Positions 23,382 through 64,000 of a stretch of DNA of 64,000 bases are shown here, in pieces. The stretch is from Malacoraja senta. Its lineage: Eukaryota. A program made the position numbers and the translations under genes. The stretch's first letter is position 1. Every line of letters begins with the position of its first letter. The notes below the pieces were generated by a model. It was not told where the DNA came from. It was given only the letters and a program-made list of their open reading frames with translations, and did not search any database. Location: positions 8,372,001-8,436,000 of the forward strand of contig CM075990.1 in the NCBI GenBank assembly GCA_038087875.1, in the 5' to 3' direction.

Positions 23382-23561
23382 AATGTGGTCTGGAATCAAA
23401 TTGTGGTGAAGGGGAAGAGAGAAATGCAATGAAGGCAACAAAATGAAATGCAACGTAACGCAACTAATGCTGGCCACATCCTGATGGAGAACTGGCGATC
23501 ATGCATTTGATACTGATTGCATTCTTGGAGATGAATATTGTCCTTTTCTTTCTGCCACCAG

Positions 23562-23846
23562 CATGCGACCTGATGACTCAAGGGATCCTGGCGCTGGTGT
23601 CCTCCACTGGCTGCACCTCTGCCAGCGCTCTCCAGTCGCTCACGGACACCATGCACATTCCCCACCTCTTCGTCCAGCGCAGCAACGGGGCCACGCCGCG
23701 CACCGCCTGCCAGTTCGTCCAAAACCCCGACATTGAAGGCTACACGCTGCCCGCCAGGCCTCTCATCCGCATCGGCGACGTCATGCTCAGGCTGGTCAAC
23801 GAACTGCGGTGGCAGAAGTTCATCATTTTCTACGACAGCAACTATG
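23562..23846 (+). CDS. GRID1: Internal coding exon (equivalent to exon 3) of glutamate receptor ionotropic delta, GRID1-like, amino-terminal domain
   Basis: Encodes (A)[39 protein letters not shown]...[23 protein letters not shown](D); pyrimidine tract and CAG acceptor end at 23561; GTGAGT donor at 23847; 285 nt, phase 1/1. Symbol chosen by closer resemblance to GluD1 than GluD2. Confidence 0.92.
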
Positions 23847-23865
23847 GTGAGTGACTCCCACGGAA

Positions 23866-31975: not shown

Positions 31976-32425
31976 GGGGCGACACGGTGGCGCAGCGGTA
32001 GAGTTGTTGCCAGAGACGGGGTGGAAGATTGCAACCTTCACGTGGTTCGTGAAGCTCTGTTTCGACGAATGCAATCAACCAAATAATCAAATAACATCAA
32101 ATAGAACAAGTTGTCCTACAACTTTAGGCTGTGCACGCCACACGCAAGAAGAAGAAGTAGCACCTGGGTTCGATTCCTGACTGCGAGTGCTGTCTGTACG
32201 GTGTTTGTACGTTCTCCCCGTGACCTGCGTGGGTTTTCTCCGAGATCTTCGGTTTCCTCCCTCTTTCCAAAGACGTGCATGTTTGTACAATTATGCATTG
32301 GCTTGGTAATTTGTCCTTCGTGTAGGATAGTGAAAATTTGCGGGGATTGCTGGTCCGCGCGGACTCGGTGGGCCGAAGGGCCTGCTTCTGAGCTGCACCT
32401 ATAAAACCCAAAACTAAAACTAAAT
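31976..32425 (+). mobile_element. HE1-like SINE interrupted at 32018-32157
   Basis: Head stops at CCAGAGAC and resumes at CCTGGGTTCGATTCCTGACT. Confidence 0.85.
32018..32157 (+). mobile_element. ~140-bp short retroelement with an HDV-like ribozyme head (P1 3' strand damaged) and a (GAA)n tail, copy 1
   Basis: GGGGTGGAAGATTGCAACCTTCACGTGGT...GTTTCGACGAATGCAATC...GCTGTGCACGCCACACGCAAGAAGAAGAAG. Confidence 0.75.
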
Positions 32426-33025: not shown

Positions 33026-33276
33026 GGGGGGTGGGAGATTGCAACCTTCTCGTGGTCCACCCTGTTTCGACTAATGCAATCAACCCAACGTGCACAAGCA
33101 AAAGATCAAATGGGGTCTCGAACCAAAGAAGGGTCTCGACCCGAAACATCACCTATTTATTTGCTCCATAGATGCTGCCTCATCTGCTGAGTTTCCCCAG
33201 CATTTTTGTCTACCATCAAATAGAACAAGTTGACCTACAGCTTTAGGCTGTGCACGCCATATGCAAGAAGAAGAAA
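33026..33276 (+). mobile_element. Same short retroelement, copy 2, with TSD TGGTTAT(GGGG), interrupted by a hammerhead-repeat fragment
   Basis: TGGTTAT at 33015-33021 and 33277-33283; the inner insert is flanked by ATCAAAT (33105-33111, 33215-33221). Confidence 0.8.
33028..33081 (+). ncRNA. Compact HDV-like self-cleaving ribozyme (predicted)
   Basis: P1 GGGGTGG/CCACCCT with a G1-U wobble; P2 GATTGCA/TGCAATC; P3 ACC/GGT; L3 TTCTCGT; rudimentary UUCG P4; J4/2 CTAA with candidate catalytic C33071. Confidence 0.78.
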
Positions 33277-45135: not shown

Positions 45136-45490
45136 TCCAGTGAAATGGCACCTGCTCCAAAACTGGCTTAAAGAACACCCTCCTTCCTCGCACATGTTCC
45201 TTTTGGCCATTAATCCATCTCATCTACCTTTTCTTGGGGGTTACGGTTGACTTGCTTCCCCTACAGATCTGAGGAGTGGGAGATCCTGAGCACTACCCCT
45301 CTCCATAATGACCTGCGTTAAAATCCTGATTAGATTTGGTCACCCTGCTATAGGAAAGGATGTCATTGAGCTGGAAGGAGTGCGGAGAAGATTTATGAGG
45401 ATGTTGCCAGGATTCAAAGGCCTAAGCTACAGGGAGACATTGGGCAGGCTACAACTTTATCCCTTGGAGTGCAGAAGGATCAGGGGTGAT

Positions 45491-46362
45491 CTGGATAGGC
45501 TGGGTGAGTGGGCAAATGTTTGGCAGATGCAGTATAATGTGGATAAATGTGAGGTTATCCACTTTGGTAGCAAAAACGGGAAGGCAGACTATTATCTAAA
45601 TGGTGGCCGATTAGGAAATGGGGAGATGCAGCGAGACCTGGGTGTCATGGTACACCAGTCATTGAAAGTAGGCATGCAGGTGCAGCAGGCAGTGAAGAAA
45701 GCGAATGGTATGTTGGCCTTCATAGCAAGAGGATTTGAGTATAGGAGCAGTGAGGTTCTACTGCAGTTGTACAGGGTCTTGGTGAGACCACACCTGGAGT
45801 ATTGCGTACAGTTTTGGTCTCCAAATCTGAGGAAGGACATTATAGCCATAGAGGGAGTGCAGAGAAGGTTCACCAGACTGATTCCTGGGATGTCAGGACT
45901 TTCATATGAAGAAAGACTGGATAGACTTGGCTTATACTCGCTAGAATTTAGGAGATTGAGAGGGGATCTTATAGAAACGTACAAGATTCTTATGGGGTTG
46001 GACAGGCTAGATGCAGGAAGATTGTTCCCGATGTTGGGGAAGTCCAGGACAAGGGGTCACAGCTTAAGGATAAGGGGAAAATCCTTTAAGACCGAGATGA
46101 GGAAAAACTTTTTCACACAGAGAGTGGTGAATCTCTGGAACTCTCTGCCACAGAGGGTAGTTGAGGCCAGTTCATTGGCTATATTTAAGAGGGAATTAGA
46201 TGTGGCCCTTGTGGCTAAAGGGATCAGGGGGTATGGAGAGAAGGCAGGTACGGGATACTGAGTTGGATGATCAGCCATGATCGTATTGAATGGCGGTGCA
46301 GGCTCGAAGGGCCGAATGGCCTACTCCTGCACCTAATTTCTATGTATCTATGTATCTACGTA
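45491..46362 (+). mobile_element. Young 5'-truncated CR1 LINE (ORF2 C-terminus open) nested in an older CR1
   Basis: DLDRLGEWANVWQMQYNVDKCEVIHFG...VRPHLEYCVQFWSP...RGDLIETYK; (TATGTATC)n tail; the host resumes at TATAAAGGTGTTTAAA. Confidence 0.93.
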
Positions 46363-52635: not shown

Positions 52636-53759
52636 CAAATATTCTCTCCGCGTTCCTGTCCATTTCCCCCCTCATTCTACCAGTCATCTACAGACTGGGG
52701 GGTCAATTTACAATGGCCAATTAACCTAATAAGCCCGATGTCTTTGGAATGTGGGAAGAAACTGGAGCATCCAGGGGATATCCCTGCAGTTGTATGGAGA
52801 ACATGCAAATTCCACGGAGACAGCACTGGAGATGCAAGGCAGTAGCTCTACCTGCGATACCACTGTGCTGTCCTCAGGCTTATTTGAAAATCGTCATGCT
52901 TCCAGGGCAGCCACGTTCCATAATAGTGAGCAGCTGTCATCCATAGATCAACCATGATTGAATGGCGGAGTAGACCTGTTGGACCGAGTGGCCTAATTAT
53001 GCCCCTATAACTTGTGATCTCATGAACATTTCCTGCTTCCAAAAGAAATGTTGATAGGATGCTAAACTGTCTTAAACCTTGGGAGATAATTGAAGACCTT
53101 TGTAGCAGGTCGGCACTCTGGAGACGAGGCAGAAGTCCCGGACTTTGGAGAGTTGTTTGTCCTTCCCGCAATCACGGAGGGAGCAGCAACTTCCCAGATT
53201 CCCAACACCGGAAATACCTGCTGGCTGAGTTGCACCAGGTCCTCCTGGCACAGGTCTTACAAGTCCAATTAATTTCACTTGTAAAACTCCTGCACAGGGA
53301 AGTGTATATGTAAGGTGATTATCTTTTTTCACATTTAATTAGGTTGCTTCAAATATATTTCATTGTTTTTAATTATTTCCAAGTTTTTAATTGGTTCTTG
53401 TGCCTTATTAAAGTGTTTCAAGTGAATTTCGAACTGCATTTGTCAAAGACAGTCAACATCCTAGGCAACATTGACATCCAGGTTATTTGGACCTGAAAGC
53501 TGCTTCTCGGGCTGAGCAAGGCCCCAATACCATACCAGCCTGACCCATCAGCTGGCACTGCTATTCTGGGGCAGGATGTGACTGGTGAACAAGGTGGCTG
53601 CCAGTATAGAGAGATTCCATGCACATGACCTTACAAGATGCAGCACATTGCCAGCAGCAGTGTTGTCACTTGCTCTTCCATTTGTCCTGTCTTCAACTAA
53701 TACGGGTGTCAGGGGTTATGGGGAGAAGGCAGGAGAATGGGGTCAAGAGGGGAAGGTAG

Positions 53760-54517
53760 ATGGTGGCCGATTAGGAAATGGGGAGATGCAGCGAGACCTG
53801 GGTGTCATGGTACACCAGTCATTGAAAGTAGGCATGCAGGTGCAGCAGGCAGTGAAGAAAGCGAATGGTATGTTAGCTTTCATAGCAAAAGGATTTGAGT
53901 ATAGGAGGAGGGAGGTTCTACAGCAGTTGTACAGGGTCTTGGTGAGACCACACCTGGAGTATTGCGTACAGTTTCGGTCTCCAAATCTGAGGAAGGACAT
54001 TATAGCCATAGAGGGAGTGCAGAGAAGGTTCACCAGACTGATTCCTGGGATGTCAGGACTTTCATATGAAGAAAGACTGGATAGACTTGGCTTATACTCG
54101 CTAGAATTTAGGAGATTGAGAGGGGATCTTATAGAAACGTACAAAATTCTTATGGGGTTGGACAGGCTAGATGCAGGAAGATTGTTCCCGATGTTGGGGA
54201 AGTCCAGGACAAGGGGTCACAGCTTAAGGATAAGGGGGAAATCCTTTAAGACCGAGATGAGGAAAAACTTTTTCACACAGAGAGTGGTGAATCTCTGGAA
54301 CTCTCTGCCACAGAGGGTAGTTGAGGCCAGTTCATTGGCTATATTTAAGAGGGAGTTAGATGTGGCCCTTGTGGCTAAGGGGATCAGGGGGTCTGGAGAG
54401 AAGGCAGGTACGGGATACTGAGTTGGATGATCAGCCATGATCATATTGAATGGCGGTGCAGGCTCGAAGGGCCGAATGGCCTACTCCTGCACCTATTTTC
54501 TATGTATCTATGTATCT
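53760..54517 (+). mobile_element. Young 5'-truncated CR1 LINE nested in another CR1 tail
   Basis: ~98% identical to 45600-46357; host tail GGAAGGTAGA...TAGATCAGCCATG resumes. Confidence 0.93.
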
Positions 54518-63154: not shown

Positions 63155-64000
63155 GGGGTGGGGAGAAGAAAGGGAAAAGGCGGAGGAGGAGCCCGAGGGC
63201 TGAGGGATGGGAGGAGACAGCCAGAGGGCTGAGGAAGGGGAGGAGACAGCTAGGGTTAGCAAAATTGGGAGAATTCAATGTTCATGCCCCAGGATGCAGA
63301 CTGCCCAAGCGGAATATGAGGTGCAATTCCTCCAATTTCCGGTGTTGCTCGCTCTGGCCATGGAGGAGACCCAGGACAGAGAGGTCGGATTCGGAATGGG
63401 AGGGGGAGTTGAAGTGCTGAGCCACCGGGAGGTCAGGTTGGTTATTGCGGACCGAACGGAGGTGTTCGGCGAAACGATCGCCAAGCCTCCGCTTGGTCTC
63501 ACCGATGTAGATCAGCTGACATCTAGAGCAGCGGATGCAATAGATGAGGTTGGAGGAGATGCAGGTGAACCTCTGTCGCACCTGGAACGACTGCTTAGGT
63601 CCTTGAATGGAGTCGAGGGGGGAGGTGAAGGGAAGAATTGACAAGGGAGTTACGGAGGGAGCGGTCTTTGCGGAAGGCAGACATGGGGGGGAGATGGGAA
63701 GATGTGGCGAGTGGTGGTCACGTTGGAGGGTGGCGAAACTGATGGAGGATCACTTGTTGTATGTGACGGCTGGTGGGGTGAAAGGTGAGGACTAGGGGGA
63801 CTCTGCCCTTGTTGCGAGTGGGGGGATGGGGAGAGAGAGCAGTGTTACGGAGTATGGCAGAGACCCTGGTGCGAGCCTCATCTATGGTGGAGGGGGGGGG
63901 GGGGCAACCCCCATTCCCTGAAGAATGAGGACATTTCGGATGCCCTGGTGTGGAACGCCTCATCCTGGGAGCAGATGCGGCGTAGACGGAGGAATTGGGA
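63155..64000 (-). mobile_element. Penelope-like retroelement: RT C-terminal linker plus GIY-YIG endonuclease, disrupted
   Basis: FTCISSNLIYCIRCSRCQLIYIGETKRRLGDRFAEHLRS...VAQHFN...E...IFRLGSLHPG(MNIEF); upstream RVPLVLTFHPT; frameshift near 63290 and a break near 63640. Confidence 0.9.

Follow-up and report, generated by a model that had tools for sequence, protein, structure and literature searches.

A short element inserted in a tRNA-type SINE

The window, which is the whole stretch of 64,000 nt from Malacoraja senta that was analysed, contains an exon of a glutamate receptor delta-1 (GluD1/GRID1)-like gene on the plus strand (23555-23848, E 2e-43), and two copies of a short non-autonomous element lie downstream of it (Table 1). 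Given this position downstream of the GluD1-matching exon, both copies probably lie in sense orientation within an intron of the GRID1-like gene, the next exon of which was not located. The first copy sits within a tRNA-type SINE and separates its A box (one mismatch) from its B box (exact). A sequence-only reading of this DNA had proposed that the insert starts at GGGGTGG, as G1 of helix P1 of an HDV-like ribozyme, and a sequence check confirms this start at 32018 on the plus strand. As that reading had also stated, the insert keeps P2, P3, L3, and J4/2 (7/7 pairs in P2, TTCACGT in L3, and CGAA at 32066-69), and it contains no A or B box with one mismatch or fewer on either strand. The box search used the generally known A and B box consensi.

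Table 1. Positions of the two element copies, the predicted fold, and the host SINE in the window
Feature	Position	Strand	Remarks
Host tRNA-type SINE, 5' part	31976..32017	+	A box 31988-99
Short non-autonomous element copy	32018..32157	+	5' end plus 3' end of Vingi-type LINE; family length ~141 nt
Predicted HDV-like fold without P4	32018..32076	+	59 nt here, 54 nt in intact copies; predicted cleavage site just 5' of 32018
P1 5' strand	32018..32024	+	G1 is the element's first base
P2 5' strand, P3, and L3	32027..32046	+	P2 5' strand 32027-33; P3 32034-36 / 32044-46; L3 32037-43
P1 3' strand	32047..32058	+	interrupted by copy-specific 5-nt insertion, about 32050-54
J1/4, P4 remnant, J4/2, and P2 3' strand	32059..32076	+	J1/4 GT; 5-nt remnant replacing P4; predicted catalytic C 32066 in J4/2; P2 3' strand 32070-76
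Remaining LINE-derived 5' part plus linker	32077..32110	+	5' part to about 32093; ~17-nt linker unmatched to LINE (alignment)
LINE 3' end	32111..32157	+	last ORF codons, TAG stop 32125-27, short 3' UTR, (AAG)4 tail 32146-57
Host tRNA-type SINE, 3' part	32158..32400	+	B box 32168-76
Second family copy	33028..33275	+	intact 54-nt fold 33028-81; 11-bp target-site duplication

The 3' strand of P1, described earlier as scrambled, turned out to be the family strand carrying a 5-nt insertion (its placement is ambiguous) and two C>T changes, and alignment to intact copies shows that both changes preserve G.U pairs. The copy is also missing about 6 nt downstream of the fold, in the LINE-derived 5' part of the alignment. 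With P1 interrupted, the nested double pseudoknot is not found in this copy, and the C that comes first in J4/2 (32066) is present. The 5-nt insertion in the P1 3' strand is unique to this copy and likely leaves it catalytically dead. No target-site duplication is detectable around it, unlike most family members. P1 of the second copy is fully paired, and this copy is itself interrupted by a nested insertion that is about 100 nt long and accompanied by a 7-bp duplication.

Other repeats are also present in the window. Two near-identical 3' fragments of one LINE ORF, which we take to be CR1-like, lie at 45290-46261 and 53582-54421, and reading frames at 63204-63749 presumably resemble the GIY-YIG end of a Penelope-like element.

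The short family and its partner LINE

At least 3,247 exact matches to a 26-nt pattern across the internal junction of the 141-nt element were found, compared to 0 for the reversed control, and this number is a lower bound on the copy number. A similarity search with the 140-mer gave 846 candidates, 40 of which were scored. To sample 5' ends blindly, we took the first 30 junction-pattern matches along one contig (C1), two of which form a duplicate pair. The element starts at the G1 position in 28 of these 30 copies, some with the first base changed or missing, and the other two are 5'-truncated. Copies reaching upstream of GGGGTGG, which the sequence-only reading had named as the contrary outcome, were not seen in this position-ordered sample (0/30). 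A similarity search with the 3' half of the element likewise gave 28/30 copies that start at the G1 position or no more than 1-2 nt off. Target-site duplications flank 26/30 of the sampled copies, compared to 27/870 mismatched flank pairs (3.1%), and a set of 73 distinct copies comprises 65 with a duplication, 5 without one, and 3 that are truncated. In the 65 copies, the duplication is 7-15 bp long (median 11); it directly adjoins G1 in 30 copies, shares 1-2 nt with the element start in 17, and in the other 18 is separated from G1 by 1-6 nt. The 30-copy sample, the 3'-half search, and the 73-copy set all place the 5' end of the element at G1, and both the G1 start and the duplications prevail among the sampled copies.

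Since a lone extra G is found at the 5' junction in just 3/65 copies, there is no steady cap-type G at the junction. A missing extra G is a weak sign of an uncapped template. The mean divergence from the majority sequence is 3.9% (27 copies). The family is present at depth in the contigs of sequencing runs X19, X20, X21, and X1, the 4 examined of 24 listed runs. The element has no ORF, and it shows the many dispersed copies, variable duplications, and simple-repeat tail that characterize bipartite non-autonomous LINE elements.

A long element sharing both ends with the short one had been predicted, and it exists as a single-ORF APE-RT-CCHC LINE of about 3.1 kb without RNase H. A pattern for the C-terminal CCHC motif, which is typical of Vingi, gave 2,250 matches compared to 0 for the control. 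One CCHC family has the final 47 nt of the short element at its 3' end, ORF stop codon included, and a 5'-inverted copy shows that the same LINE opens with the ribozyme region followed by the APE start. A search with the LINE 5' region returned 33 matches; among the 10 fetched, 4 carry both ends in order (L193-L196), 4 are 5' inversions, and 2 are partial. The short element matches the LINE (L193-L202) at 88-92% over nt 1-77 and at 89-97% over nt 95/100-141, and the linker of about 17 nt between these shared ends does not match it. Duplications flank L194 and L195. Pfam detects RVT_1 (E 1e-25) and Exo_endo_phos_2 (E 2e-8) in the partner, and the C-terminal CCHC lies upstream of the shared 3' end. 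All four long copies L193-L196 are interrupted by stops or frameshifts, and every genomic copy seen is broken. The best database homologue (P0001) is intact, encodes 1,019 aa with 72% identity, and lies on a 3,344-bp contig; no RNase H family was detected in it at E<=1. Vingi elements have been described in the accessible part of one report as compact, with a single ORF that contains APE and RT and no RNase H (PMC13708176), and the partner fits this description because it has a single APE-RT ORF and an intact homologue without RNase H.

The partner RT scores 260-352 bits against those of the sister families and 127 bits against the RT of a two-ORF I-group element. Its score drops to 47 bits against an RTE-type (DUF6451) RT encoded in the same genome, to which it is 26% identical over 129 aa with the motif G.PQGS versus G.KQGC. 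An RT tree joins the partner with P0001 (100/99), with outgroups that are long and unresolved and with no named Vingi protein included, and two sister families (D and G) are tied at the DNA level to Vingi-2_Gav through its printed 5' end. By sequence comparison, the partner is Vingi-type and not RTE. Of the mobilisers that had been put forward, an Ingi/Vingi-type or an RTE-type LINE, the first therefore agrees with the partner and the second fails on the pairwise RT scores. A single ORF and bipartite derivatives are found in RTE elements as well, according to the parts of PMC5786205 that were available. Nevertheless, in addition to the low RT score, the RTE-type elements returned by a DUF6451 search do not share their ends with the short element, and the sole match to it in 11 such loci is a whole-length copy (nt 1-137) and not a shared end. 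Together with the reading of the element as an ordinary Pol III SINE, which is opposed by the lack of boxes in the insert and by the assignment of the nearby boxes to the host SINE, an RTE-clade mobiliser is largely refuted, and we give the pair almost no weight. From the ends shared with the LINE, we infer that the short element would be mobilised in trans by the partner protein.

Two-ORF I-group elements, which were returned by a PF14529 search, were rejected as the partner, as 0/30 fetched loci matched the element. These elements (L074, L078, L423, and others), presumably Nimb-like, have many intact 1,277-aa frames, which suggests recent activity. By the CCHC region, about ten distinct Vingi-type families are present in the genome (G000), most of them ending in (GAA)n. 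The reading frame of the partner LINE is open through the ribozyme region (L193:198-1463, L194:510-881, and L195), with the first ATG at the J4/2-P2 junction and a second Met 20 codons later. Inversions of the 5' part are frequent in Vingi-type copies that keep their heads, occurring in 4/10 of the fetched copies plus L121 and in 3/4 copies of family G (5'-inverted loci L121, L197, L199, L200, L202, L328, L329, and L331).

A predicted P4-less HDV-like fold

In intact short copies and in the LINE, the first 54 nt can be arranged as a P1 of 7 bp (G.U first), a 2-nt J1/2, a P2 of 7 bp, a P3 of 3 bp, and a 7-nt L3, followed by GU, a 5-nt remnant at the place of P4, C-N-A-A, and the partner strand of P2. 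This is a nested double pseudoknot in which J1/4 could form P1.1. Of the 30 sampled copies, 9 have fully intact folds and 4 more are intact save position 1 (the first pair). Other Vingi-type families in the genome show the same head layout with different helix sequences. When 10 related families were compared (one copy each, leaving out family G and F copies and L361), 166/170 helix cells pair and 58 compensatory cells fall in 15/17 columns, counts that lean upward because the parser took the best-pairing register and the permutations did not re-optimise registers. None of 5,000 strand permutations reaches either the pairing or the compensatory value. The C and A of J4/2 were required by the parser, so these two letters are not independent results.

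The motif was also searched for upstream of related ORFs in metagenome contigs, using the 21 regions (of 80 loci) in which the match started no later than residue 100. It is present in 6/21 regions, representing four distinct elements, compared to 0/21 on the reverse strand and 0/42 in internal stretches. Replacing the catalytic C in the descriptor with T, A, or G gave 1, 0, and 2 of 21 regions, compared to 6/21 with C. The 15/21 regions without a descriptor match include several that are truncated or decayed, and a fifth element was found with a looser L3. A Vingi-type head upstream of position 612 in L333, with a long hairpin in its core, was missed by the descriptor and appears HDV-like by eye.

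The fold could instead be a non-catalytic remnant, with the 5' end inherited from a master copy and the stems kept for protein binding. The reduction of P4 to 5 nt is consistent with this, and so is Rfam, which gave 0 hits at gathering in the window and no ribozyme hit for the flagged family on 4 loci (E<=10) or on L194 and L251 (E<=0.05). Nearest-neighbour folding of the first window copy is also unremarkable (z -1.5), although pseudoknots are beyond the method and the copy itself is damaged. Against a remnant, P4-less ribozymes are active in vitro, as reported in the available part of PMC10879173, and the long LINE lacks P4 in the same way. In addition, a second short family (family E; L218, L233-L238, L243, L309, and L312), about 170 nt long and with the same tail type, is likewise without P4 and repeats the geometry of the fold with helices of different sequence. 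We consider a non-catalytic remnant very unlikely and favour a functional P4-less ribozyme fold.

The predicted fold has close relatives among known ribozymes. In the parts of PMC10879173 available to us, minimal P4-less HDV-like/theta ribozymes likewise keep P1, P2, P3, L3, and J4/2 in 54 nt. Those ribozymes come in nearly 99% of cases from phages, often beside tRNAs, and the eukaryote set of that study consists of human, mouse, and protists, whereas here the form stands at the start of a vertebrate retroposon that numbers thousands of copies. The CPEB3 ribozyme (RF00622; PMC8233481, accessible in part) shares its L3, J1/4 GU, and J4/2 CGAA with the flagged family, which differs from it in P1, P2, and P3 and in the absence of P4 and of an Rfam hit. 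The CPEB3 ribozyme is a single conserved intronic copy, whereas the flagged family has thousands of copies.

Origin of the element and of the CPEB3 ribozyme

Starting from the observed shared ends, copy number, fixed 5' end, duplications, partner APE-RT-CCHC frame, and covarying fold, we regard the element as most probably a non-coding descendant of a Vingi-type LINE that has lost the interior. It would keep the first 77 and last 47 bases of the LINE, its first 54 bases would form a P4-less HDV-like ribozyme that cuts before G1, and it would be copied through self-cleaved read-through RNA and the LINE protein. A Pol II transcript reading through an intact copy would allow the ribozyme to fold and cleave itself, which would release an uncapped RNA starting at G1. 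The LINE protein would bind the shared 3' end of this RNA in trans, and target-primed reverse transcription would then integrate the full-length sequence, creating a duplication of 7-15 bp. The flagged copy would have landed in the tRNA-type SINE within the GRID1-like intron and later gained 5 nt in P1. Read-through, self-cleavage, capture, and target-primed reverse transcription are drawn from analogy with L1Tc/NARTc (PMC3383444) and from reviews (PMC6765202), both as far as accessible, so both the self-cleavage itself and a host read-through precursor rather than an internal promoter are presumed from that system.

The analogy with RIME-like elements made in the earlier reading holds, and it extends to NARTc, since the short element and the LINE share both ends in each case. 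From what could be consulted of PMC3383444, NARTc/L1Tc and RIME/ingi likewise have the initial 77 nt and a short 3' portion in common between element and LINE, and the HDV-like ribozyme of L1Tc/NARTc cleaves just upstream of +1, matching the layout predicted here. In contrast to NARTc/L1Tc, the element described here has a vertebrate host, a partner without RNase H, no P4 (L1TcRz has one), an (AAG)n tail rather than poly(A), and a ribozyme that is a predicted fold.

According to the available part of the same article, the first 77 nt of L1Tc (Pr77) double as a promoter that starts transcription at +1 and overlaps the ribozyme, which means that this 5' end does not require cleavage. The 5' end of the element described here could likewise be set by an internal Pol II promoter starting at +1, with the fold secondary, as a protective or translation signal, as in the Pr77/L1TcRz case. 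Thousands of copies would be easier to make with an own promoter, and the open LINE frame through the fold, with its first ATG at the J4/2-P2 junction, also suits this explanation. However, helix sequences vary between families and the pairs are kept, which fits an RNA structure more than a DNA motif, and the extra junction G is as scarce as noted above. Such a promoter is also compatible with cleavage and does not exclude it. Overall, we judge a promoter-defined 5' end unlikely, if less so than a non-catalytic remnant, and retain self-cleavage from a read-through transcript as the preferred origin of the 5' end.

The sister families were compared with the CPEB3 ribozyme model of Rfam (RF00622, gathering score 35). 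Families D, E, and G pass this score, with seven scanned loci at 37.2-59.7 bits (L317 59.7, L323 51.4, L324 50.6, L308 47.7, L217 44.0, L325 39.2, and L309 37.2), and two loci lie below it (L310 34.4 and L312 30.8). No RF00622 hit was obtained for L204, L214, or L278, families B and C are without a hit, and the flagged family does not reach 35 bits. Heads of family D are located on near-complete ORFs, and in family G 4/4 heads were found joined to pieces of one Vingi-type LINE, with three inversions and one internal deletion. Sister Vingi-type loci with CPEB3-passing heads (D and G) are L308, L323-L325, L317-L321, and L217.

Counted by eye on printed alignments, L323 agrees with the CPEB3 consensus at 54/64 positions with one compensatory P2 pair, and both P4 strands of L325 are identical to the consensus, a P4 stem shared by family G. 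The metagenome element L368, also by eye, agrees at 45/49 positions outside P4. Similar agreement is seen in the portions of the PMC5786205 supplement that were accessible, where the printed 5' end of the gharial Vingi-2_Gav matches the consensus at 52/54 positions outside the P4 interior and the alligator SINE2-1_AMi matches at 57/66, including all 14 P4 stem bases. In the same accessible portions, the CPEB3-like Vingi head of SINE2-1_AMi is preceded by a tRNA head and has two changes in L3 and a P1 gap, which would be expected if cleavage had to be lost for the promoter to persist.

Because P2 and P4 vary freely among families, the identity between the CPEB3 and Vingi heads points to common descent over convergence, and the CPEB3 ribozyme is likely, from this sequence comparison, a Vingi relic that probably began as an element end. 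Counting against such descent, the motif is short and constrained, and the comparison covers the aligned heads. The human genome carries Vingi traces (X12_LINE; PMC5753468, accessible in part), and amniote HDV ribozymes have been said in general terms to be likely co-opted (PMC7761336, in the part available). The function of the CPEB3 ribozyme is under study (PMC10919898). A term search of the whole text of PMC8233481 found no discussion of CPEB3 ribozyme origin, and CPEB3 is not mentioned in the main text of PMC5786205. No published statement of a CPEB3-Vingi link was found in the open-access literature searched.

Two-ended Vingi derivatives, ribozyme-headed NARTc/RIME elements, and a two-ended LINE derivative with a ribozyme in trypanosomes and R2 are already known. 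As reported by Kojima (2011) and cited in the accessible part of PMC5786205, derivatives of Vingi-1_EE likewise retain only the two termini of an APE LINE that is about 3.1 kb long, has a single ORF, and lacks RNase H. The same source gives a length of 3,128 bp for Vingi-2_Gav, the element whose printed 5' end matches sister families D and G. Vingi is absent from the list of ribozyme-bearing clades in the available part of that paper. Against the open-access literature searched, the predicted ribozyme on Vingi, the P4-less form in a vertebrate, and the specific CPEB3 donor would be new.

Taken as a whole, the Vingi clade probably begins with HDV-like ribozymes, the mammalian CPEB3 ribozyme being a domesticated Vingi 5' end. 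The flagged family would then be the active, P4-less 54-nt end of this series, at thousands of vertebrate loci, with intact sense intronic copies cutting host pre-mRNAs. Vingi-1_Acar with its native 5' UTR serves as an RNA gene-writing tool, as the accessible part of PMC13708176 describes, and a ribozyme in that 5' UTR, if true, would bear on template design. The predicted ribozymes would place Vingi among the LINE clades that carry HDV-like ribozymes at their 5' ends, would give the P4-less form, to date described almost exclusively from phages, a source in eukaryotes, and offer a concrete, testable candidate donor for the CPEB3 ribozyme.
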